The translations under genes and the position numbers were made by a program. Below are positions 2,746 to 22,988 of a stretch of DNA of 32,000 bases, piece after piece (the stretch's first letter is position 1; every line of letters begins with the position of its first letter). The notes beneath the pieces were generated by a model. The model was not told the DNA's origin and made no database searches. It saw only the letters and a list, made by a program, of their open reading frames with translations. Source of the stretch: an uncultured Planctomycetia bacterium (GTDB taxonomy: Bacteria; Omnitrophota; Gorgyraeia; Duberdicusellales; 4484-171); assembly GCA_964536865.1 (NCBI GenBank), contig CAZHYN010000005.1, positions 1 to 32,000 on the forward strand. The letters run 5' to 3'.

Positions 2746-3097
2746 ACTTTCATTAATTAGTAATGGTTGAATGCAAAATAAAAATGAGCAGCTAACTTTT
2801 GAAGTTTTTCTTTCGACCTTTGATTAAGTTCAAAAGATAATTTTTTAATCATTTTTAATTTTTGTTCTCTTTCATAAATGTAAAGTATTTCTTGTTTAAG
2901 ACTTTATTCTGCTAAGACAAAGTAGTGTTTTCTTTTTCATCGCCACATTCTGTTTTCTATAGATCGATTTCATATAACAGCTGGCGAACAAAAAAATTGC
3001 CAAAGATAATTTGGAGAAATTTTTCCCTGCTTGCGGGCAGAGGATAGGTAAAGATTTCTCTTTTATCCGTCATTAAGCGACAGTTGTGCTGATTTTC

Positions 3098-3394
3098 TTA
3101 TGATTTCGACGCTATTTCTAAAAAGATTCTTGATACAAGGCCTAATACAACAGCTAATATGTTTAAGGAAATTATTTTCCATCCCGACTTCTGTTTAACC
3201 CCATAGAAGGTGCCAATAATCCCGAATGTTATTGCTACTATGCTACATCCCTTTCCAAAGATAAAGAAGGAAATTACAGCAGAAATTAATCCTAATTTTG
3301 CTGTCCATTTAGGATCTTTAAATTTAGCCCATCTATCAAGCTTTTGTTGATTGTTCTGGTAGTTCTCCATATAAGTAATCTTCCCCTTTGTCAT
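3098..3394 (-). CDS. hypothetical small membrane protein
   Basis: 98-aa ORF with two TM helices. Its start overlaps the stop of the upstream ORF (3391-3394). Confidence 0.5.
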   Translation of the reverse strand: MTKGKITYMENYQNNQQKLDRWAKFKDPKWTAKLGLISAVISFFIFGKGCSIVAITFGIIGTFYGVKQKSGWKIISLNILAVVLGLVSRIFLEIASKS

Positions 3395-4056
3395 CTAAGT
3401 TTAAAACTATTTATGGCTTCTTCAAAATATTTGCGATTATCAGCAAAATTTCCAGGTTCATCATATGCACTTAAATGATAACAAATTCCGTTCTTCAAGA
3501 AAAAATATCCTAATGTTCTATACTCCTCACCAGTAAAAGAATCTATTCCTTCATATTCTACCCTAATAGCCTTTCTACCGTTTAATTCAATTTCCTTAGG
3601 CGACTCAATAAAACAAAAATTCTTAAGCGACCATTTTGCTGTATCAAGGGAGGTATTTACGTAATCCCATACTGTTGGCTCCGTTCCTTTAAAGATAACA
3701 TTGGCAGGATTTTCAATTGTAAGAGTAACTTCAGGGTTTGATTTTACAGAACGGACAGGATATTTAAAAAAGCTTAACTGTAAACCAAAGGGACATTTTT
3801 CTCTTAAAAACTGCCTTAGTAAATTGTAAACCTCTGATTCTCGTTCTTTATTTTTTAGCCATGCTTCAAGAATTGTCCATTCTTTGGGTTTCTCCATATG
3901 CCATCCCTCTGGCCCTTGAATGCTAAATCCTAACTTTTCATTCGCATAAAGATTTCCTTCTGCTACAACTTCTTGATTACTTAAACCTGGAAGAACTAAC
4001 CCAATAGCCAAAGAAAAAAATAATAAAAATCTCCTGATTCTATTCATTCTTCTCAC
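3391..4056 (-). CDS. secreted hypothetical protein, possibly PsbP/DcrB-like fold
   Basis: N-terminal signal-like peptide (RRFLLFFSLAIGLVLPG). The GFSIQGPEGWHMEKP motif is typical of PsbP/DUF1795-like domains. Translationally coupled to both neighbours. Confidence 0.5.
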   Translation of the reverse strand: MRRMNRIRRFLLFFSLAIGLVLPGLSNQEVVAEGNLYANEKLGFSIQGPEGWHMEKPKEWTILEAWLKNKERESEVYNLLRQFLREKCPFGLQLSFFKYPVRSVKSNPEVTLTIENPANVIFKGTEPTVWDYVNTSLDTAKWSLKNFCFIESPKEIELNGRKAIRVEYEGIDSFTGEEYRTLGYFFLKNGICYHLSAYDEPGNFADNRKYFEEAINSFKLR

Positions 4057-14731: not shown

Positions 14732-14849
14732 GCCGGGCGCTGACCTACTCTCCCACCCCCTTGCGAGGACAGTACCATCGGCCCTGGAGGGCTTAACGGC
14801 CGTATTCGGAATGGGAACGGGTGTGGCCCCTCCGGTATGAGCACCCGGC
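14732..14849 (-). rRNA. rrf: 5S rRNA
   Basis: The reverse complement reads gccgggtgctcataccggagggg...cccgttcccattccgaa...gttaagccctcc...gatggtact...gggagagtaggtc...cccggc, canonical 5S. Confidence 0.9.
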
Positions 14850-15033
14850 AGAAAATAATTACAGATTACAAATTACAGATTTATTTTTAATTTGTAATTT
14901 GAAATTGGATAATCTGTAATTTATAGTTTAAGGTTGGGTATCAAGCCGATTGGCCATTAGGAGTGTTCGGCTAAACACGTTACCGTGCTTACACCTGCAC
15001 CCTATCAAGGTCGTAGTCTCCGACCGGCCTTCA

Positions 15034-15322
15034 CCCCGCCCTTTTTATTTTCCCAAAAGAGTAAGAGTATTCTTAATCCTTTTCTTAAGATGTCCTAACG
15101 AAGAACCATACAACTTTAGCTTTTTCTCTCTACTAAAAGCATCTTTTTTAGAAAGATATGCTTCATAATATACCATCACATAATCTTTTTTAGTTTTTTT
15201 ATGTTGCTGAATCCTATCTTTTAAAGAGGAAGTAACTCCTATATAGAAGTGCCTTCTCTTAGGATTAAAAAGGAGATATACATAATACATCTTACCTCCT
15301 TTGGGTATTGAAAAGGGCGGGG
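15034..15322 (-). repeat. hairpin-bounded insertion (IVS) in the 3'-terminal domain of 23S (H98-equivalent tip), carrying a GIY-YIG ORF
   Basis: ccccgcccttttt (15034-15046) pairs with aaaagggcgggg (15311-15322). The flanking sequence aligns with the E. coli region around 2790-2800. The interior is AT-rich and almost entirely ORF. Confidence 0.75.
15045..15290 (-). CDS. small GIY-YIG (URI-domain only, YhbQ/COG2827-like) nuclease-family protein
   Basis: MYYVYLL...RHFYIGVTSSLKDRIQQHKK...YYEAY..K.DAFSREKKLK contains the GIY and YIG motifs and the conserved R/E/K pattern. RBS aaaggaggtaagATG. Same strand as the rRNA. Confidence 0.7.
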   Translation of the reverse strand: MYYVYLLFNPKRRHFYIGVTSSLKDRIQQHKKTKKDYVMVYYEAYLSKKDAFSREKKLKLYGSSLGHLKKRIKNTLTLLGK

Positions 15323-15566
15323 AGGGATCCCTAGTTTTGGGGTGAGCTTCCCGCTTAGATGCCTTCAGCGGTTATCTCCTAGGAACACGGCTACCCAGCC
15401 TTTACCGCTGGCGCAATAGCTGGTACACCGGAGGTTCCTCTGTCCCGGTCCTCTCGTACTAGGGACAGCTCCCCTTCAAGGATCCTTGCACCCACAGTGG
15501 ATAGAGACCGACAATCTGTTACTTTCTCCTACCTCAAAAGTTTTATAATTTAAGGTAGGATACTGA

Positions 15567-15671
15567 CCCAGCCTTTTTTAATTTCTATTTATCTTAAGTA
15601 AAAGATTAATCTTCTTTGCAAAATATTGAAAATAACCGCTGTTTTTTCATAGGTTGAATAAAAAGGCTGGG
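15567..15671 (-). repeat. GC-clamp hairpin insertion nested in the 3' part of the intron at 15512..16423
   Basis: cccagcctttttt (15567-15579) pairs with aaaaaggctggg (15660-15671), with an AT-rich interior. Confidence 0.65.
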
Positions 15672-15734
15672 CGGCCTGACATTTCTGTCAGACTCTCACC
15701 GTCCCCGGTGAGTTCGGACTGTATCTTCCCCACG

Positions 15735-16262
15735 CTACGTTGGGGTCTGGCGTACAGTCTCTGAGGGTTCTAGAAGGAGAAATAACTCCTTAAGTGGTAG
15801 TTTTCTATATCTACCACTGCTATTCATGGAGTGGGCGATTCTTAAAATTTTCTTTAAACCTTCAAGGGTGAGATGAAGTTTCTTCCCCATCATTCTTACC
15901 ACTTCTTTAAACTTCTCAAAATCATCTCTTTTAGAAAAAAGAGAGTATTTTTCAAAAAAAGGAATCACACGTTGTTCTAAATTCTTTAAATCTCGCACCA
16001 CTAACACCCAAGTAAGATCATAGGGATTTCTGGAATGATTAGGTTTAATATACCCACAACCAAGATGTCTCTGGATTAACTCCAACACTTCCTTACGGTT
16101 ACGGTGCTGACACACATGAAACTCAGGAATAACCTGAATTCCTAATCTCACATTCTTACTTCTCTGGATAGAAATGGAGAAACTTCCCTCGCCATCTACA
16201 AAACCGGCGATATAATCGCCCCACTCTCCTTCTAGCCTTCCCTGCTGGTTATCTGCACCCAT
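15735..16262 (-). CDS. single-motif LAGLIDADG homing endonuclease
   Basis: YIAGFVDGEGSFSISI LAGLIDADG motif near the N-terminus, about 175 aa (I-CreI/I-CeuI size class). RBS aggag. Located inside the intron on the rRNA sense strand. Confidence 0.8.
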   Translation of the reverse strand: MGADNQQGRLEGEWGDYIAGFVDGEGSFSISIQRSKNVRLGIQVIPEFHVCQHRNRKEVLELIQRHLGCGYIKPNHSRNPYDLTWVLVVRDLKNLEQRVIPFFEKYSLFSKRDDFEKFKEVVRMMGKKLHLTLEGLKKILRIAHSMNSSGRYRKLPLKELFLLLEPSETVRQTPT

Positions 16263-16566
16263 ATATTTTTACTCCTGACTACTCACCACCCTATTATTTC
16301 AAAGTGGTCCCTTAAAAAAGGGAATCTCTATAGAATAGCATATAGAGACTGAATAATCAAGTAGTAATATGGGATACTCAGACTTCCCAGCATATAGCCA
16401 GATTTATAGACAGCACGGTTCGTACTGTCTCACGACGTTCTGAACCCAGCTCACGTACCCCTTTAACCGGCGAACAGCCGGACCCTTGGGAGCTTCTCCA
16501 CCCCCAGGATGGGATGAGCCGACATCGAGGTGCCAAACCGGGCCGTCGATGTGAACTCTCGGGCCC

Positions 16567-16613
<47 letters not shown>

Positions 16614-17070
16614 GCTCCCACGCGCAACCACCGGATCACTAGGCCCCGCTTTCGCGTCTGCTCGGCCTGTCGGCCTCACAGTCAGGCACCCTTATGCCCT
16701 TACACTCAACGTCCGGTTTCCAATCGGACTGAGGGTACCTTTGGGCTCCTCCGTTACCTTTTAGGAGGAAACCGCCCCAGTTAAACTGCCCAACTGGCAC
16801 TGTCCCCCGACGTAACGTCAGAGTTAGAACCTTAGTACGGTAAGGGTGGTATTTCACTGACGGCTCCCCCCGAACTGGCGTCCGGGGTTCACAGCCTCCC
16901 ACCTATACTACACATACCGGACCAAAATTCAATACCAGCCTGCAGTAAAGGTTCCGGGGTCTTTTCGTCCAACTGCGGGTAGGCGGCATCTTCACCGCCA
17001 CTACAATTTCGCCGGCTGCCTCCCCGAGACAGCGCTCCCGTTGTTAAACCTTTCGTGCGGGTCGGAACTT

Positions 17071-17444
17071 CACCTTAATCTTGGTGTTTCCACCAAGGGT
17101 GGACTATACCTTCACCCCACCCTTTCTATCCACGCAAATTAATTGAAACTGAGTAATTTTTAAGATACTTAACCAAACGAAAATATCCTCTTCCTCTTAA
17201 ATTAGGTGTTTAGAAAGAGTGGGGGCCGGCGTATTAGCCATCCTTTAATTTGAGTTCTTAGAACTCATAAGATGGCTCCCTTCCCTTAAAAGAGAAGGAG
17301 TCTCTACGGGGTCATCAAGGAAAAAATTCCCTTTAGACTTCCCTCGGGATTACCCAGTATTCTCAAAAGAATCCTTAGGGCTTTCCCGATATGAGCCGGT
17401 GTTTCATCCCAATTTGCATTGGGAAGGGGCAAGTTTAAAAACTT
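17071..17444 (-). mobile_element. ORF-less group I intron in 23S after U1951-equivalent (GUCGGGU|AAGUUCC)
   Basis: Exon ...tagtcgggt | aagtttttaaacttgccc (P1 helix with U-G at the splice site) ... gaaggtatagtcc ... gattaaggtg | aagttccgacccgcacgaa. The intron ends in G and has no ORF. Confidence 0.7.
17115..17245 (-). repeat. GC-clamp hairpin insertion nested in the intron at 17071..17444 (immediately 5' of the aaggtatagtcc element)
   Basis: ccccaccctttcta (17115-17128) pairs with tagaaagagtggggg (17231-17245). The single non-Watson-Crick position is a G-U wobble only in the rRNA-sense transcript. Confidence 0.65.
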
Positions 17445-17499
17445 ACCCGACTAGGAATTTCGCTACCTTAGGCATTCCTTTCGGAATGGACCATATCTT

Positions 17500-17600
17500 T
17501 CCCGCCCTTTTTACTCACCCAAACTAACTTTATTTAAACTCATTTTGAGACTCTTTAGTTTTTTGTCTACTCTTACCTTGTGAATTTAAAAAGGGCGGGA
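17500..17600 (-). repeat. GC-clamp hairpin insertion nested in the intron at 17473..18260, overlapping the 3' end of the LAGLIDADG ORF
   Basis: tcccgcccttttt (17500-17512) pairs perfectly with aaaaagggcggga (17588-17600). Confidence 0.65.
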
Positions 17601-18132
17601 CCTGGCGTATGGTCTCTGAGGATCCCAAGGAGGAGAGAATTTCTCTTAAATTATATTTGCGTTGTTTTCCTTTATCATTCATACTGCAAGCAAGTTTTAC
17701 TATTGCTTTAAATCCTTCCAGAGTATGATGATCTTTTTTTTCCATTCTCTCTATAATTTGACTAAATTTGAGAAAATTTTCCCATTTGTCAGTTAAGAGT
17801 TTATATTTCTTAAAAAAAGGTAAGATCTTCTCTTTCAGTGTGCGTCTTTCTGAGATGCAATATACATAAGTGTTACTCTTAGGTGATTTAGGTTTAATAT
17901 ATCCTGCCTGAAAAAATTTTTTAAGTAACTCCAAAAGGTGGATATTTTTTTTATGCTGATAAACCTGGAAACAGGGGTCTATCACCCAGCCAAACTTTGC
18001 TGTAGGCAACTTCTTTATAGAAACACTGAAAGAACCTTCTCCATCTACAAATCCTGCGATGTAGTAACTTAGATATTTTCTCTTTGAAGGTAAACGCTGA
18101 AAACAAAGATTATCTTTGAATTCATAAAGCAT
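17530..18132 (-). CDS. single-motif LAGLIDADG homing endonuclease
   Basis: YIAGFVDGEGSFSVSI motif. The likely start is MLYEF (ATG 18130-18132), preceded by aaggagggg. Paralogous to 15735..16262, including DNA-level similarity around ctggcgtaYRgtctctgagg. Confidence 0.8.
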   Translation of the reverse strand: MLYEFKDNLCFQRLPSKRKYLSYYIAGFVDGEGSFSVSIKKLPTAKFGWVIDPCFQVYQHKKNIHLLELLKKFFQAGYIKPKSPKSNTYVYCISERRTLKEKILPFFKKYKLLTDKWENFLKFSQIIERMEKKDHHTLEGFKAIVKLACSMNDKGKQRKYNLREILSSLGSSETIRQVPPFLNSQGKSRQKTKESQNEFK

Positions 18133-18259
18133 TGCCCCTCCTTGGTTTCCTGCTGGTAACTCCTCTGTAGGAATTCTCACCTTCTCGGTACCCTACAGAT
18201 TTAGGAGTGTCCCAGCATATAGCCAGGTTTTACAACGGCCCTGCTCTTTTTTCAGAGTC

Positions 18260-18301
<42 letters not shown>

Positions 18302-18426
18302 TCCGCTTTGATACGGGTCCCCTTAACCTTCCGGCACTGGGCAGGTCTCAGTCCCTATACATCCTCTTTCGAGTTAAGCAGGGACCTGTGTTTTTGCTAA
18401 ACAGTCCCGGGAGCCATTTCACTGCG

Positions 18427-18454
18427 CCCCGCCCTTTCTTTAGAAAGGGCGGGG
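18427..18454 (-). repeat. 'empty' GC-clamp hairpin (23S, H63-equivalent region)
   Basis: ccccgccctttc-ttta-gaaagggcgggg: the same stem as the insertion-bearing sites, closed by a 4-nt loop. Confidence 0.6.
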
Positions 18455-18974
18455 ACCCCTTCTTGCGAACGTACGGGGCTAGATTGCCGAGTTCCTTAGG
18501 GAGGTTTCTGCCGAGCGCCTTACCATACTCTGGCAGCCTACCTGTGTCGGATTCCGGTACGGTCACCCATAGACAACTTAAGAAGCTATTTCTCGGCACT
18601 AAGTCCAGGCAACTTCGCCCGCGCCGTAGCTTGGGCTCCCCTCCGACGTAATGTCGGGGAACGGACACCTCCAACCGTCCGCCTACCGCACTTAGTGCGT
18701 CACTCCTTAAGTTCCTGCACGAAGCAGGTCCGCTTTTGGCGGAAACGCCTATAGGTGGGGGGCGAATATTAACGCCCTTCCCCATCGCCTACCCCTTTCG
18801 GGTTCAGTTTAGGGACCGCCTAACCTCCGTCTGACTAACATTGACGGAGAAACCTGAGGCTTTCGGCGTCCCGGTTTTTCACCGGGATTTTCGCTACTCA
18901 TTCCAGGATACTCTCTTCTGTAGACTCCATCCCGACTTACGTCGAGACTTCACTGTCTACAGAATGCTCCCCTA

Positions 18975-19097
18975 CCCCCAGCCCTTTCTATCTAACATAT
19001 CGAACAATAAACACTCTTAGAAAAATGCTCCTCTTTTTTATAAACTTTTTAACAAAGGTTTTTTTAGTAGAAGTAGAAAGGGCTGGGCCGTAGCTTC
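18975..19097 (-). repeat. intervening sequence in 23S helix 45-equivalent
   Basis: cccagccctttcta pairs with tagaaagggctggg (14 bp) around a roughly 93-nt AT-rich loop. The flanks align with E. coli ...CACCGAAGCUGCGG / GGGUAGGGGAGCGUUC, the classical H45 IVS site. Confidence 0.7.
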
Positions 19098-20575
19098 GGT
19101 AACAGGCTTAAGCCCCGATCATTTTCGGCGCAGAGTCACTCGACCGGTGAGCTATTACGCACTCTTTAAATGATGGCTGCCTCTAAGCCAACATCCCGGC
19201 TGTCTAAGTGACTCCACATCCTTTACCACTTAGCCTGTTTTTAGGGACCTTAGCTGACGGTCTGGGCTGTTTCCCTCTCGACCAACAAGCTTATCCCTGC
19301 TGGTCTTACTCCCAAGCTTAAGATCTAGGTATTCGGAGTTAGGTTGAGTTTGGTATTCCATTACGGAACCCTAGCTCATCCTGTGCTCTACCCCCTAGAC
19401 CAAACACTTGAGGCTAGCCCTAAAGCTATTTCGGGGAGAACCAGCTATCACCAGTCTTGGTTAGCCTTTCACTCCTACCCACAGCTCATCCGAGCCGTTT
19501 TCAACCGACACCGGTTCGGGCCTCCATCCGCTGTCACGCGGACTTCACCCTGGCCATGGGTAGATCGACTGGCTTCGGGTCTACTGCCTAAAGCTGGACG
19601 CCCTGTTAGGACTCGGTTTCCCTACGCCTCCCCCCGACATTACGTCGGGGTTAGACTTGCTATAGACAGTAACTCCCTGGACCATTATGCAAAAGGTACG
19701 CCGTCACCCGCCTGAGGCGGGCTCCGACCGCTGTGTAGGCTTATGGTTTCAGGTTCTATTTCACTCCCCTCACCGGGGTTCTTTTCAACTTTCCCTCACG
19801 GTACTAGTGCACTATCGGTCTGGTGCGAGTATTTAGCCTTAGACCGTGGTCGGCCCAAATTCCCACAGGGTTTCCCGTGCCCCATGGTACTTGGGAACAC
19901 TACCAGGAAGACTTACCTCTTTAACCTACAGGGCTCTCACCTTCTATGGCTCCGCTTTCCAGCGGATTCGGCTAGAGATAAGTTTGGTAACTTCCCGAAG
20001 AGTCTGCCGCCTCTTCTTGGTAATGTCCCGCGACCCCCAAAGAGCAACGCCGGCAGGCTTTAACACTCTTTGGGTTTGGGCTCTTCCCTTTTCGCTCGCC
20101 GCTACTGGGGGAATCCCTTTCGGTTTCTTTTCCTCCGGGTACTGAGATGTTTCACTTCCCCGGGTTAGCTCCCCGACATAACATCGGAGTCTCTCGATAT
20201 TACTCGAGAGGGGTTTCCCCATTGGGGAATCTGCGGATCACAGGCTACTTGCGCCTCCCCGCAGCTTATCGCAGCTTGCCACGCCCTTCATCGCCTGCAC
20301 CAGCCAAGTCATCCACCATAAGCCGTGCGTAGCTTGATACCCAACCTTATTTTCAAAGAACTTTTATTTTAATTACAGACTAATCTCTCTTCAGATTAAT
20401 CTGTAATCTGTAATTTGTAATTTGTAATCTACTTTTTATGGAGCCGAGCGAAGTTTCCACCTCAGCGGACTCACCTTTGGTGAAGAACCGCTGACCTCTC
20501 TGCACTTTTTAACAACCACTCAACAAATTAAAAGAATATAAATTTCTCCTTCGCACACATCTCCACTTTATTATC

Positions 20576-20885: not shown

Positions 20886-21133
20886 TAAATTCTCCTTATG
20901 CAAAATTAACACTTGTAACCATCTAGAGCTTCCAAGTCAAAGCTTAAAAGTTTGTATAAAATAAAAAGCCTTTGGAGGATTTAAGATTCTCTACTCTCAC
21001 GTAGAGTTAGAAAGGAGGTGATCCAGCCGCACGTTCCCGTACGGCTACCTTGTTACGACTTAGCGCCAATCATGGAATTCACCGTGACCCCGACGTAATG
21101 TCGGAGCTTCGGGCGCCCCCCACTTTCAGCGCT

Positions 21134-21172
<39 letters not shown>

Positions 21173-21399
21173 GCGCCGTGGCTGATGCGCCATTACTAGC
21201 GATTCCAGCTTCACGAGGGCGGGTTTCAGCCCTCGATCCGAACTGGGCCGGCTTTTTAGGGATTTGCTCCACCTTACGGCTTTGCCTCCCGCTGTAACCG
21301 GCATTGTAACACGTGTGTAGCCCAGGGCATAAGGGCCATGCGGACTTGACGTCGTCCCCACCTTCCTCCCACTTAACGCGGGCAGTCCCCTTAGAGTGC

Positions 21400-21499
21400 C
21401 CCAGCCCTTTTTATTCCCTGATTAATACAAATTATTGAAAATTTAATTAAAGATACAGCACTTTATCATTTCTTTAATCAAAGTATAAAAAGGGCTGGG
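21400..21499 (-). repeat. intervening sequence in 16S helix 39-equivalent
   Basis: cccagccctttttat pairs with ataaaaagggctggg (15 bp) around an AT-rich loop of about 70 nt, between gttgctac and cactctaagg. Confidence 0.7.
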
Positions 21500-21543
21500 T
21501 AGCAACTAAGGGCGAGGGTTGCGCTCGTTCTCCCACTTAAGGG

Positions 21544-21591
<48 letters not shown>

Positions 21592-21691
21592 TTCCCGACT
21601 GGATACGGGTGGCAACCCCTTTCGGAGCGCTACTACCTACATGTCAAGCCCTGGTAAGGTTCCTCGCGTAGCATCGAATTAAACCACGTGT

Positions 21692-21751
<60 letters not shown>

Positions 21752-21829
21752 CCAGGTGGGGCACTTAACGCGTTAGCTTCGGCACCCCCCTAAAATAGAG
21801 GGACACCTAGTGCCCATCGTTTACAGCTA

Positions 21830-21863
<34 letters not shown>

Positions 21864-22095
21864 TAGCTTTCGTCCCTGAGCGTCAGGACTGAACCAGAGA
21901 GCCGCCTTCGCCACAGGCGTTCCTGCCGATATCCACAGATTTCACCCTTACACCGGCAGTTCCGCTCTCCTCTTCCAGCCTCGAAGCCAAGCAGTTTGAA
22001 AGGCACTTTCCCGGTTAAGCCGGGAGATTTCACCTTCCACTTACTTGGCCGCCTGCGGACCCTTTACACCCAGTCAAACCGAGTAACGCTAGGTG

Positions 22096-22133
<38 letters not shown>

Positions 22134-22158
22134 CACCTTATTCATCGGGTACAGTCAG

Positions 22159-22185
22159 TCCCACCCTTTTATTAAAAGGGTGGGA
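22159..22185 (-). repeat. 'empty' GC-clamp hairpin at 16S helix 17-equivalent tip
   Basis: tcccaccctttt-att-aaaagggtggga. Confidence 0.6.
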
Positions 22186-22426
22186 TTTCCTCCCCGATAA
22201 AAGGGGTTTACACGCCGAAGCGCTTCATCCCCCACGCGGCGTCGCATCCTCAGGCTTTCGCCCATTGGGAAAGATTCTCGACTGCAGCCTCCCGTAGGAG
22301 TCCGGGCAGTGTCTCAGTCCCGGTGTGGCTGACCACACACTAATGCCAGCTACCCGTCTTAGGCTTGGTAGGCCATTACCCTACCAACTACCTGATAGGA
22401 CGTGAGCCGCTCTTGGAGCGGCAGCA

Positions 22427-22532
22427 TCCCGCCTTTTTTACTCAGGGAAATATATTAAAGAAAACTCTCTCTTCTCTGTCCCTCTTCCCACAATACAATT
22501 CTTTCCTCTCAAAGGTGTATAAAAAGGCGGGA
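22427..22532 (-). repeat. intervening sequence in 16S helix 10-equivalent
   Basis: tcccgcctttttta pairs with taaaaaaggcggga (14 bp) around an AT-rich loop of about 79 nt. Confidence 0.7.
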
Positions 22533-22655
22533 GAGGCCACCTTTACTCCTAAGACATCTCAGTCTCAGGAGACCATGGGGTATTACCTCCGATTTCTCGA
22601 AGCTATCCCCCTCTCCAAGGTACGTTACCCACGCATTACTCACCCGTTTGCCGCT

Positions 22656-22768
22656 ATCCCACCCTTTCTACTACCCCCAATAAAGACTTTAAGAAATGAA
22701 CTAAACCTTACTTCTTACCTTAAACTCGGTTTCCTTCTCAATAAAGGGAGTAATAAAAAGGGCGGGAT
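22656..22768 (-). repeat. intervening sequence in 16S helix 6-equivalent
   Basis: In the sense transcript, atcccgcccttttt pairs with agaaagggtgggat (14 bp including two G-U wobbles) around an AT-rich loop of about 84 nt. It lies just after gcatgcaagtcgagcg. Confidence 0.7.
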
Positions 22769-22789
22769 CGCTCGACTTGCATGCCTTAT

Positions 22790-22826
<37 letters not shown>

Positions 22827-22988
22827 CCTCCAAAGGCTTTTTTCTTTTCAGTCAAAGAGCAAGCGATAAAAAAAGCATCCTCTCTTTTCTTTAGGATGCT
22901 TTAAAAACAATTCTCTATTTAAATTTAAGAAGTAATCTGCTTTTTCTGTGTCAAAGAAAGGTTGCTCTCATCACCTTGGCAATATATT

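Follow-up and report, generated by a model that had tools for sequence, protein, structure and literature searches.

A GIY-YIG nuclease gene enclosed by inverted-repeat arms in place of helix 98 of an Omnitrophota 23S rRNA gene: a probable IVS-type selfish mini-element

The window, that is, the whole stretch of 32,000 nucleotides that was analysed, carries on its minus strand the rRNA operon of an Omnitrophota bacterium, and in the 23S rRNA gene of this operon a 289-bp insertion (15034–15322, minus strand) occupies the place of helix 98 (H98). The operon is rich in introns, and LAGLIDADG homing genes are also present in it. A CPR host was rejected, since the neighbouring genes are those of Omnitrophota. 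The operon and the parts of the insertion are the following:

16S 21011–22836, two tRNAs, 23S about 14950–20339 and 5S 14732–14848, minus strand: rRNA operon
15034–15322, minus strand: complete 289-bp element in place of 23S helix 98 (Rfam alignment, E. coli mapping, predicted RNA stem)
15311–15322, minus strand: 5′ clamp arm (CCCCGCCCUUUU in RNA sense), a perfect 12-nt complement of 15034–15045, of an arm type that also borders homologous ORFs in other genomes
15034–15045, minus strand: 3′ clamp arm (AAAAGGGCGGGG in RNA sense), which overlaps the TAA stop codon with its first base
15045–15290, minus strand: ORF of an 81-aa GIY-YIG nuclease (Slx1/UPF0213-like) on the rRNA sense strand (ORF list, Pfam, PDB profile, AlphaFold2)
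15295–15302, minus strand: Shine-Dalgarno sequence AAAGGAGG, 4 nt upstream of the ATG (read from the sequence)

Aligned to the Rfam model, the 3′ part of the 23S rRNA has a 283-nt insertion instead of the 5-nt loop at model positions ~2820. The context reads flank GGGAUCCCU, insert CCCCGCCC...GGGCGGGG, flank UGAAGGCC, and corresponds to E. coli H98 (nt ~2791–2805), a known variable and expansion site from which eukaryotic ES39 emerges. The arms are complementary at 12 of 12 positions, and pairing continues imperfectly as far as 33 nt; the clamp can also be written CCCCGCCCTTTT/AAAAGGGCGGGG, and its joined palindrome form, CCCCGCCCTTT(N0-3)AAAGGGCGGGG, comprises 24 bp. For the element, an RNA stem of 12 and about 22 further base pairs is predicted (MFE −103 kcal/mol, z = −3.9). 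In this predicted fold the Shine-Dalgarno sequence of the ORF pairs with the 3′ end of the ORF, and both it and the AUG are masked by the stem. The ORF starts with ATG, preceded by AAAGGAGGTAAG, and was the only GIY-YIG ORF copy found by tblastn in the window. The non-coding part of the insertion amounts to only 43 nt, and group I and group II intron models gave no match in 15034–15322 at the gathering threshold or at E ≤ 1 (Rfam), the Intron_gpI matches at E ≤ 1 lying only at 17080–17454 and 15695–15948. Like an IVS, the element is no intron and stands in for the apical part of a peripheral 23S helix; also as in an IVS, its ends are predicted to pair with each other, so that the rRNA helix is prolonged by an extended stem.

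The encoded protein matched Pfam GIY-YIG PF01541 over residues 1–59 (38.6 bits, cut-off 22.6 bits; E = 1.3e-9), and the Pfam scan at E ≤ 1 returned only GIY-YIG, MUG113, T5orf172 and Mvb12. An S23p-type IVS protein was rejected, as PF05635 (23S_rRNA_IVP) was without a match in the same scan. The profile search against the PDB placed 1ZG2 at the top (E = 6.9e-8), followed by 1YWL (E = 1e-3) and SLX1, with UvrC and I-TevI weaker. The AlphaFold2 model (pLDDT 93.9) had 1ZG2, Slx1 and I-TevI as best folds, and a fold search with it gave the same ranking, UPF0213 first and then Slx1 (7CQ2, 4XM5, 6SEH). Its elements E2–9, E14–20, H23–33, E38–45 and H48–60 form the beta-beta-alpha-beta-alpha core of the GIY-YIG superfamily; this catalytic domain takes up all 81 residues, with no accessory or DNA-binding domain. 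On sequence and predicted fold, the protein is assigned to the GIY-YIG superfamily and is closer to UPF0213 (YhbQ, COG2827)/Slx1 than to the UvrC or homing-endonuclease lineages. The putative catalytic residues Y5, Y16, R26, H30 and E55 were unchanged across 35 aligned family members, and dN/dS values of 0.03–0.23 in 16 pairs, rRNA-hosted pairs included, indicate purifying selection on the ORFs.

An earlier note on this DNA had described a GIY-YIG ORF in a 289-bp clamp-bounded insertion at H98, and the Rfam alignment, the ORF list and the Pfam match confirmed it. Its reading of 81 codons on the rRNA sense strand behind a ribosome-binding site was correct, and its YhbQ/COG2827-like identification proved significant, specifically of the UPF0213/YhbQ type. 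The lack of room for a ribozyme core that it had pointed out agrees with the 43 non-coding nucleotides and the intron searches, and the ORF, for which decay in relatives had been considered, is conserved.

Homologues of the window ORF numbered 221, with 41 loci in GTDB species-representative genomes of many phyla and at least 567 loci in metagenomes. Outside the same organism, the window protein has no relative closer than 62% identity. No relative was detected on viral contigs in a scan of IMG/VR, and a phage origin was rejected on that ground. Among the ~120 loci examined, 104–106 non-identical elements possessed a strong flanking inverted repeat (score ≥ 10), which bears out the expected co-occurrence of ORF and clamp in relatives. 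The arms flanking related ORFs measure 12–24 bp, vary in sequence by lineage and read CCC.../...GGG at the outer ends of the element; 38 distinct perfectly paired 12-mers were recorded. Complementarity was 97–100% between the arms inside one element vs 34–86% between arms of different elements, and arm type tracks protein clade. Judged from these comparisons, the clamp is the terminal inverted repeat of the element itself and apparently accompanies the ORF when it enters RNase P RNA, tRNA leaders or protein-coding genes. The clamp thus does bound the insertion, as had been stated, and the companion idea that it is an rRNA hairpin holding a gene did not stand.

A GGAG/GAGG motif was found in only 9 of 106 related elements; most copies have no Shine-Dalgarno sequence of their own, and the distance from the element boundary to the ATG is 14–20 nt. 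Mismatches in the stem were more often G.U than A.C on the sense strand (8:2 at positions 1–12 and 116:46 at positions 13–22). At positions 13–22 the G.U share was 0.72, vs 0.62 from composition alone, a bias that is real but modest after this control and derives partly from a recurrent G.U beside the stop codon. The excess of G.U over A.C is no more than suggestive of a role for the stem on the sense strand.

The hosts of the element comprise 16S and 23S rRNA, RNase P RNA, tRNA-Pro leaders, group I introns, an Omnitrophota RNA motif in the flanks (which matched no Rfam family at E < 0.05) and protein-coding genes. All 29 of 29 rRNA-hosted copies are in sense orientation, and one copy hosted by RNase P (L021) is antisense to its host. 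Several rRNA sites are used repeatedly, namely 23S H25 (6 loci) and 16S H40 (6), H44 (3), H6 (3) and H17 (3); H25, and H45 with its ORF-less hairpin in the window, are classical IVS helices. None of the sampled relatives is located at H98, and the closest relatives of the window element are not in rRNA. One protein clade with one arm type was found at at least eight host sites, and elements 76–83% identical lie in unrelated flanks (16S H40 vs RNase P; 23S H25 vs non-rRNA). Copies more than 90% identical in nucleotide sequence were not found in different flanks, so the data bear no sign of recent mobility. Target-site duplications were absent from rRNA, coding-sequence and RNase P flanks, a repeat of 9–10 nt occurring only at tRNA-Pro sites, and no target consensus was detected in the flanks of the elements. 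Whole peripheral hairpins are replaced by the element: in rRNA hosts the flanks beyond the clamp are unpaired (median score 1, the same as random), and the clamp therefore replaces the host hairpin and is not stacked on top of it. HTH_17 genes with and without an insertion permit a direct comparison; in one of them an ORF-less hairpin of 97 nt lengthens the gene by 31 codons in frame.

A search for CCCRCCCTTT gave 11 occurrences in the window, with 0.17 expected by chance, and all of them lie in the rRNA operon. Eight ORF-less hairpins with the clamp of the element are present there:

22658–22766, minus strand: hairpin of 109 nt that replaces 16S H6 (E. coli 69–100); the same site carries a GIY-YIG ORF in L013, L029 and L104
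22428–22531, minus strand: hairpin of 104 nt, CCCGCCUUUUU variant, in the 16S H9/H10 region
22159–22185, minus strand: a minimal clamp palindrome, 27 nt long, at the 16S H17 tip; a GIY-YIG ORF is at the same site in L032, L036 and L083
21400–21499, minus strand: hairpin of 100 nt that replaces the tip of 16S H39 (E. coli 1129–1141)
18977–19087, minus strand: hairpin of 111 nt that replaces 23S H45 (E. coli 1165–1184), a classical IVS site
18427–18454, minus strand: a minimal clamp palindrome, 28 nt long, lying between E. coli 1703 and 1773 in the region of 23S H63
17501–17599, minus strand: hairpin of 99 nt within a 788-nt LAGLIDADG-bearing insertion (E. coli ~1924)
15567–15671, minus strand: hairpin of 105 nt, CCCAGCCUUUUU variant, within a 914-nt LAGLIDADG-bearing insertion (E. 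coli ~2606)

The clamp variant is genome-specific and common to the ORF copy and the ORF-less hairpins (CCCGCCCTTTTTAT in the window, CCCGCCCTTTTGA in L039). On alignment, the hairpins of ~100 nt and the element have just clamp and length in common, and a six-frame HMM search of the ORF-less hairpins returned no GIY-YIG remnant (best E = 0.58). Their interpretation as internally deleted copies is for these reasons unsupported, and their derivation from the element is unproven.

Insertions of a comparable kind are known from the CPR, in whose rRNA genes 30 GIY-YIG ORFs have been catalogued, all in non-intron insertions (Tsurumaki et al. 2024, PMC11270868); the arrangement, which the earlier note had called unusual, is thus less so than claimed. 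There too a small GIY-YIG ORF lies in a 16S or 23S insertion that is neither group I nor group II; these insertions are found where conservation is poor, at the top or the base of a stem-loop, and classical homing was judged not to be their mode of spread (PMC11270868). The present host differs in belonging to Omnitrophota, and the H98 site lies past the last frequent CPR site, at 2657 (PMC11270868). The survey covers rRNA genes only and its main text contains neither 'inverted repeat' nor 'palindrom', so the co-varying arms, the ORF-less siblings and the copies outside rRNA are not covered by it (PMC11270868). No prior description of a GIY-YIG element bounded by inverted repeats was found in open-access papers and bioRxiv. 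While GIY-YIG ORFs in non-intron rRNA insertions are already known, the architecture and the spread beyond rRNA appear to be undescribed.

Classical 23S IVSs (Salmonella, Campylobacter, Leptospira, Coxiella) are likewise non-intron, sit at the tip of a peripheral helix, have a long extending stem and are sporadic. They may enclose an ORF, in some cases S23p/23S_rRNA_IVP (PF05635), where the window element has a GIY-YIG ORF instead; unlike them, its termini are a conserved co-varying clamp found across phyla and in non-rRNA copies. In classical IVS hosts, excision by RNase III without religation fragments the 23S rRNA. By sequence and fold the protein is best matched by UPF0213 (YhbQ, BH0048, EF2693) and eukaryotic Slx1, which are minimal one-domain nucleases. 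Vertical inheritance and a role as repair or structure-specific nucleases are ascribed to these proteins (PMC1564403); the genes of the window clade, in contrast, are enclosed by inverted repeats and act like a mobile module. I-TevI, I-BmoI and the phage Seg proteins have the same catalytic fold and are selfish genes in or beside essential genes. GIY-YIG homing endonucleases, however, have long C-terminal DNA-binding domains and one long target, and usually reside in self-splicing introns; the window protein is a bare catalytic domain, with no ribozyme and many unrelated sites. REP/REPIN-RAYT systems, MITEs and Rickettsia palindromic elements (RPEs) are also short palindromic hairpins that are multiplied in a genome and linked to one small nuclease or transposase gene with the repeats on either side, and RPEs enter RNA genes and, in frame, protein genes, comparable to the HTH_17 hairpin. 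RAYT, however, is an HUH Y1 transposase and REPs are extragenic, whereas the present element encodes a GIY-YIG protein, prefers structured RNA genes and shows no target-site duplication. IS200/IS605 elements ('peel-and-paste', ssDNA) are similarly very small, with hairpin-forming ends and no target duplication, but use an HUH enzyme with covalent intermediates and subterminal hairpins; in our element the ends pair across its whole length, and the enzyme would be purely hydrolytic. Terminal inverted repeats, as in IS elements and MITEs, are present (perfect over 12–24 bp, 104–106 elements), and a target-site duplication of fixed length is not. The only ORF being GIY-YIG, no transposase of a known class (DDE, HUH, serine, tyrosine) is encoded; no ribozyme core of a group I or II intron extends over the insertion, and the distribution is not that of one lineage at one conserved target, as in classical homing.

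From sequence comparison, then, the arm–ORF–arm unit behaves as a module present in many phyla and host sites, with arms that co-vary and an ORF evidently kept by purifying selection. The 289-bp segment is probably one copy of an IVS-type selfish mini-element, whose nuclease would drive its spread at the DNA level. Its excision, translation and nuclease activity we infer. The element would be transcribed as part of the pre-rRNA; its terminal stem, made up of the 12-bp clamp and about 22 further pairs, would substitute for H98, and the ribosome would tolerate the element as an IVS or expansion. Processing of the RNase III type may cut the long stem; this would remove the insert and leave a 3′ fragment of ~100 nt that resembles the 4.5S rRNA of chloroplasts. 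The protein would be translated from the precursor or from the excised RNA, the stem masking Shine-Dalgarno sequence and AUG until opened. The nuclease would then act on DNA in a structure-specific, Slx1-like manner, recognising the clamp palindrome or hairpin, and repair of the break may copy the element to new sites, or maintain it and its ORF-less relatives there. The sites that survive would be those where a self-closing hairpin is harmless, chiefly the tips of structured RNA genes. The sense orientation of all rRNA copies and the lack of a Shine-Dalgarno sequence in most copies are in support of dependence on host transcription; the occurrence of one clade and arm type at many sites, the unrelated flanks and the filled and empty HTH_17 genes are in support of movement between sites. 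Also in favour are the ORF-less siblings at the 16S sites (H6, H17) that bear the ORF in other genomes. Insertions in CPR rRNA genes have been reported as removed from transcripts, as cited from Brown et al. 2015 (PMC11270868). On the other side, arms of 12–24 bp are short for homology-directed copying, which counts against this explanation. The enzymes of the GIY-YIG type known to us only hydrolyse and would therefore be unable to perform strand transfer, which is a further point against it. The explanation is also weakened by the general absence of target-site duplications and of a target consensus, by the lack of copies above 90% identity in different flanks, by the distance of the nearest relative and the absence of sampled relatives from H98, by how little the ORF-less hairpins share with the element, by the antisense copy L021 and by the missing DNA-binding domain.

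It is unlikely that the protein is instead a dedicated RNA-processing factor, which would recognise the clamp stem in precursor RNAs and cut all clamp-bounded hairpins, whether they hold an ORF or not, out of rRNA, RNase P RNA and leaders, and so render harmless insertions that spread by another route. The single ORF copy beside eight ORF-less hairpins with a common genome-specific clamp variant would suit such a factor, as would the G.U bias on the sense strand, the almost exclusive sense orientation in the hosts and the fusion of a bacterial Slx1-like domain to a SPOUT RNA-methyltransferase, taken as a hint of a role in RNA metabolism (PMC1564403). Every biochemically characterised GIY-YIG enzyme, however, cuts DNA (PMC1564403), RNase III already accounts for the removal of IVSs in other bacteria, and common descent predicts the match of clade and arm equally well. 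Moreover, some elements lie within protein-coding genes, and a host gene of this kind would not be rescued by excision of the RNA if the ends were left unligated. These data favour mobility over RNA processing as the role of the protein, and prove neither. A spread mediated by RNA, in which the excised hairpin enters exposed loops of structured RNAs, is reverse-transcribed and recombined, and the nuclease aids the DNA step only, has a slim probability. It is consistent with the abundance and structured nature of the host RNAs (rRNA, RNase P RNA, tRNA precursors, group I introns, leader-like RNA), with the uniform orientation in rRNA and with the replacement of whole peripheral hairpins. Selection for ORF expression and host tolerance accounts for the same biases, however, and the element has no reverse transcriptase, RNA ligase or ribozyme; the antisense RNase P copy and the copies in poorly transcribed contexts and coding sequences also argue against this route.

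Quite unlikely, too, is a classical site-specific homing endonuclease gene with one long rDNA target at H98, a gene that would be copied into empty alleles through homologous recombination. Homing endonucleases do include the GIY-YIG family, the rRNA sites listed above are used repeatedly and LAGLIDADG homing genes are located in the same operon; against this, the bare 81-aa catalytic domain has no DNA-binding module, a single clade and arm type occupies at least eight unrelated sites and not one conserved target, the closest relatives of the window element are outside rRNA, and the flanks contain no conserved target. An ordinary lineage-specific expansion hairpin whose ORF is decaying or there by chance, or else a group I/II intron in a degenerate state, would fit the variable nature of H98 and the intron-rich operon, but has next to no probability. 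This explanation was refuted by the significant HMM and fold matches, the invariant catalytic residues, the dN/dS values, the presence of the same module outside rRNA, the 43 non-coding nucleotides and the intron-model searches.

IVSs in bacterial 23S rRNA have been known since about 1990 and are thought to spread horizontally, and we know of no mobility machinery linked to them so far. The preferred reading, a selfish mini-element, presents an IVS-type insertion that carries its own nuclease and conserved co-varying termini. It is possible, though we put this forward only tentatively, that it represents an unrecognised class of minimal autonomous mobile elements of ~250–330 bp, with an Slx1-like GIY-YIG gene in self-complementary ends, which target, or survive preferentially in, the tips of structured-RNA hairpins in many phyla. 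In ultra-small bacteria, such elements and their ORF-less derivatives might be a main source of the non-intron IVS and expansion hairpins that rRNA, RNase P RNA and introns contain, and the long-unexplained horizontal spread of IVSs in rRNA would then have a mechanism. If the nuclease is autonomous, the element would be among the smallest gene-bearing mobile elements known and would supply a compact structure- or palindrome-specific nuclease. The 81-residue protein and the 24-bp palindrome make the question of IVS mobility directly testable. The element could also explain much of the unusual load of rRNA insertions in Omnitrophota and the CPR, a load that complicates 16S surveys.

The rRNA operon of the window was complete and located on the minus strand. 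Its 23S rRNA gene was ~5.4 kb long because of several insertions inside it. The components and large 23S insertions were as follows:

21011-22836, minus strand: 16S rRNA gene
minus strand, within the operon: two tRNA genes
about 14950-20339, minus strand: 23S rRNA gene
14732-14848, minus strand: 5S rRNA gene
17472-18260: 23S insertion at about E. coli 1924, with a single-domain LAGLIDADG_1 ORF (17530-18180)
17070-17440: 23S insertion at about E. coli 1952, an ORF-less group I intron (Rfam, 53.7 bits)
15511-16421: 23S insertion at about E. coli 2606, with a single-domain LAGLIDADG_1 ORF (15735-16262)
15034-15322, minus strand: the element

Scanned alone, the 3' third of the 23S rRNA gene aligned with positions 2354-2912 of the bacterial LSU model, with two large insertions of 914 nt and 283 nt. 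The former, at about E. coli 2606, enclosed a LAGLIDADG ORF and gave a weak group I signal; the latter stood where a 5-nt loop is expected (model position ~2820), flanked by GGGAUCCCU and UGAAGGCCGGUCGGAGACUACGACC. BLAST against E. coli rrlH and the known E. coli sequence identified this site as H98 (nt ~2791-2805), an expansion site (eukaryotic ES39). The 289-bp insertion that the earlier note had placed at the H98 tip, bounded by a GC clamp, was thus confirmed by both alignments and by the perfect 12-nt inverted repeat at its ends (RNA sense CCCCGCCCUUUU...AAAAGGGCGGGG). The sites at ~1924, ~1952 and ~2606 coincide with frequent insertion sites of CPR (Patescibacteria) rRNA (1917/1931/1952 and 2593/2604). 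A CPR host was rejected and the host assigned to Omnitrophota on the evidence of a neighbouring gene, whose product, a homocysteine-biosynthesis protein, matches proteins named Candidatus Omnitrophota either exactly or at ~77% identity.

Other features of the operon were recorded. A 145-aa ATG ORF within the 23S rRNA gene (18348-18785, minus strand), which the public contig annotation lists as a gene, is probably a spurious call, because it matches no Pfam family and coincides with conserved 23S sequence. Inverted TTACARAT-type repeats (AATTACAGATTACAAATTACAGAT / ATTTTTAATTTGTAATTTGAAATT) form nested hairpins in the 23S-5S spacer (14857-14925). A second mini-hairpin unrelated to the clamp, CCGAC-AUUAC-GUCGG (extending to CCCCGAC...GUCGGGG), is present in three copies, two in 23S, H25 region included, and one in 16S (18643-18657, minus; 19634-19648, plus; 21090-21104, minus), with none expected by chance.

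The sole ORF of the element (15045-15290, minus strand, 81 codons) has its ATG preceded by AAAGGAGGUAAG, as proposed for an ORF with a ribosome-binding site on the rRNA sense strand. Only 43 nt of the element are non-coding and no intron model matched it even at E<=1, so the view that a ribozyme has no room here holds. The ORF matched the Pfam GIY-YIG family above the curated threshold (E=1.3e-9). A profile of 35 homologues retrieved first the UPF0213 proteins BH0048 (1ZG2, E=6.9e-8) and EF2693 (1YWL), followed by Slx1 and then I-TevI and UvrC; the AlphaFold2 model (pLDDT 93.9) showed GIY-YIG topology and its structural matches ranked likewise, in agreement with the suggested YhbQ/COG2827-like domain. 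Residues Y5, Y16, R26, H30 and E55 were invariant in the homologue alignment and dN/dS was 0.03-0.23 in 16 pairwise comparisons, some with both members embedded in rRNA genes; the ORF is conserved rather than decayed. The gene appears to be functional and is presumably translated; its product is a catalytic domain alone, belonging to the Slx1-like clade, described as the minimal form of the GIY-YIG fold by Dunin-Horkawicz et al. (PMC1564403). The predicted RNA stem comprises the 12-bp clamp and about 22 further pairs, sequesters the SD and AUG, and would be long enough for an RNase III substrate.

Some database homologues carried odd N- or C-terminal extensions (...SEPRPFK-M..., ...RKGGADG...) that corresponded to the clamp translated in frame. 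Among the contigs of these homologues, 41 GTDB species-representative loci and 80 metagenome loci of at least 567, almost all homologous ORFs lay inside a perfect 12-24-bp inverted repeat starting (A)CCC... and ending ...GGG(T). With an inverted-repeat score of at least 10 required, 106 non-identical elements of 250-330 bp were counted, and the anticipated co-occurrence of ORF and clamp was therefore found in relatives. Arm sequences varied by lineage (e.g. CCCCGCCCTTTTGG, CCCAGCACTTAT, CCGAGCACATAA, CCCCCACACCAA, CCCCTCACTTGG, CCCCGCCCTCTA), with 38 distinct perfectly paired 12-mers, and arm type tracked protein clade. The arms co-vary strongly, since complementarity at positions 1-12 was 97-100% within one element, whereas arms from different elements matched at only 34-86% of variable positions. 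On these comparisons the clamp appears to be a property of the element and not of rRNA. No relatives were found among IMG/VR viral contigs.

Inside 16S or 23S rRNA genes, 28 loci and the window carried the ORF, in rRNA sense orientation in 29/29. Recurrent sites were H25 of 23S (near E. coli 543, six loci) and, in 16S, H6, H17, H40 and the tip of H44; the classical IVS helices of 23S are H25 and H45. Hosts other than rRNA included the following (coordinates of each locus):

L041:3956-4725, L025:3980-4644, L021:3572-4274: RNase P RNA, element in P3
L011:3958-4420, L020:4320-4445, L031:4262-4385, L038:4280-4411, L044:180-317, L056, L126:404-560: tRNA-Pro
L008:765-861, L051 (same sequence), compared with L004 and L002:4743-4997: 97-nt ORF-less clamp hairpin in an HTH_17 gene
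L012, L014, L015 (e.g. 3040-3560), L017, L019, L026-L028, L030, L035, L037, L043, L045, L057, L066, L089, L092, L096, L099: four-helix RNA-like motif

The three RNase P elements lie immediately 5' of GAGGAAAGUCC (Rfam RNase P, E=1e-19 to 1e-24), and one of the three ORF-bearing copies (L021) is antisense to the RNA. The L021 RNase P gene also holds two ~50-nt ORF-less clamp hairpins. Several elements directly adjoin the tRNA-Pro 5' end, where the clamp hairpin sits between 9-10-nt direct repeats (C)GGGGCRTRG, the first bases of the tRNA, whose two copies co-vary across genomes. The GIY-YIG ORF is within the hairpin in L011 and L056; in L020, L031, L038 and L126 it lies beyond the hairpin, a short way upstream. 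A partial tRNA-Pro duplicate is present in L011.

Coding genes interrupted by other copies are radC and, in three or more phyla, an excisionase-like HTH_17 gene. The latter is intact in L002 (...VSEYLQMNEH...IPSLKIAGQW...), which makes empty and filled sites directly comparable: two codons, YL, are replaced by the GIY-YIG element, and KI by the separate 97-nt hairpin, which adds 31 codons in frame with no stop, like the in-frame codon addition by Rickettsia palindromic elements. A 99-nt version with stops occurs in L009, where the downstream gene is decayed.

The closest relatives of the window element (59-62% aa identity) occupy non-coding regions beside GAAGTTATCCACAG (L005:5290-5310, L048, L049, L055, L062). 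This sequence lies 20-80 nt downstream of the element; it may mark an origin or promoter region, because it contains a perfect DnaA-box consensus TTATCCACA and further clamp-like hairpins are nearby. In L022 (3729-3922), ~50 nt upstream of a GIY-YIG element, a c-di-GMP-I riboswitch match spans 194 nt against the 87-nt model, which suggests an internal insertion in the aptamer.

About 19 elements of Omnitrophota and Planctomycetes are located at the central-helix tip of the conserved ~150-nt four-helix motif, arranged as AAUGARGCC, a hairpin with an ACUUAYGG/CRUAAGU stem, GGCUGAAUUUGA, the clamp, UUUAAUUCGCA, a second similar hairpin and GYGCUCAUU. The motif precedes diverse unrelated genes, ending directly at SD and ATG. 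RNAalifold predicted 45 pairs, with compensatory changes in 26/45, and no Rfam match was obtained at E<0.05. An ORF-less copy of this element-bearing motif was found at L035:2984-3228. Either the motif is a so far undescribed leader RNA of Omnitrophota and Planctomycetes, or it forms the outer portion of a composite element.

The operon of the window also holds ORF-less siblings. The window contains 11 copies of CCCRCCCTTT (0.17 expected), every one of them in the rRNA operon. Peripheral hairpins are replaced in eight places by clamp hairpins that lack an ORF and measure about 27 or about 100 nt (16S H6, H9/H10 region, H17 and H39; 23S H45 and H63 region; and, within two intron-like insertions that carry LAGLIDADG ORFs, peripheral loops). 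At H6 and H17, other genomes have the complete ORF-bearing element. Within a genome, hairpins and ORF-bearing copy share a genome-specific clamp variant. The hairpin interiors are AT-rich and unrelated, with no ORF remnant detectable in those of the window. One clamp hairpin (17501-17599) overlaps the final ~23 codons of the LAGLIDADG ORF 17530-18180.

Together, the sequences show a module that moved as a unit among many sites and phyla, its ORF kept by selection and its ends constrained to stay complementary. Dependence on the host transcript is pointed to by the uniform sense orientation in rRNA, the scarcity of SD motifs (9/106 elements; boundary to ATG only 14-20 nt in many copies), the in-frame joining of the ORF to the N-terminal part of the host protein in radC and HTH_17, and the modest surplus of G.U relative to A.C mismatches when the ORF-sense strand is read. 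RNase III removes IVSs without religation, and a break near H98 can be tolerated because chloroplast 4.5S rRNA is the 3' ~100 nt of 23S. CPR rRNA insertions are reportedly missing from transcripts, according to the part of PMC11270868 that cites Brown et al. 2015.

Classical homing to a specific site is unlikely, since a single clade sharing one arm type was found at eight or more unrelated sites and the flanks revealed neither a target consensus nor general target duplication. An RNA-processing role of the GIY-YIG protein is a less likely alternative to action on DNA, and spread of the element through RNA is less likely again. To our knowledge, all characterised GIY-YIG enzymes act on DNA, and this nuclease would therefore do the same. 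Given the Slx1-like fold and the lack of a DNA-binding domain, it would most plausibly recognise the clamp as a palindrome or extruded hairpin, the element then being copied by host repair.

A GIY-YIG protein in an rRNA hairpin is less unusual than the earlier note supposed: Tsurumaki et al. 2024 (PMC11270868), in work that follows Brown et al. 2015, list 30 such ORFs from rRNA insertions of CPR bacteria; none of these insertions resembles either intron class, and the authors considered them to lie outside homing. The window element is thus a new instance of a catalogued class; its phylum and site are new. In PMC11270868 and the open-access papers and preprints searched in full text, beyond which an earlier description is possible, we did not find the conserved co-varying terminal stem, the ORF-less siblings, the many-phyla spread, or copies in RNase P RNA, tRNA leaders, introns, leader-like RNA and coding genes. 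The earlier observation is confirmed and its interpretation supported. The feature is real, non-intronic and probably functional, and is best described, from its sequence, as a hairpin-bounded GIY-YIG mini-element forming an IVS at H98. More tentatively, and as a possibility rather than the favoured expectation, it may represent a class of its own, made up of minimal mobile elements from which IVS-type insertions arise.
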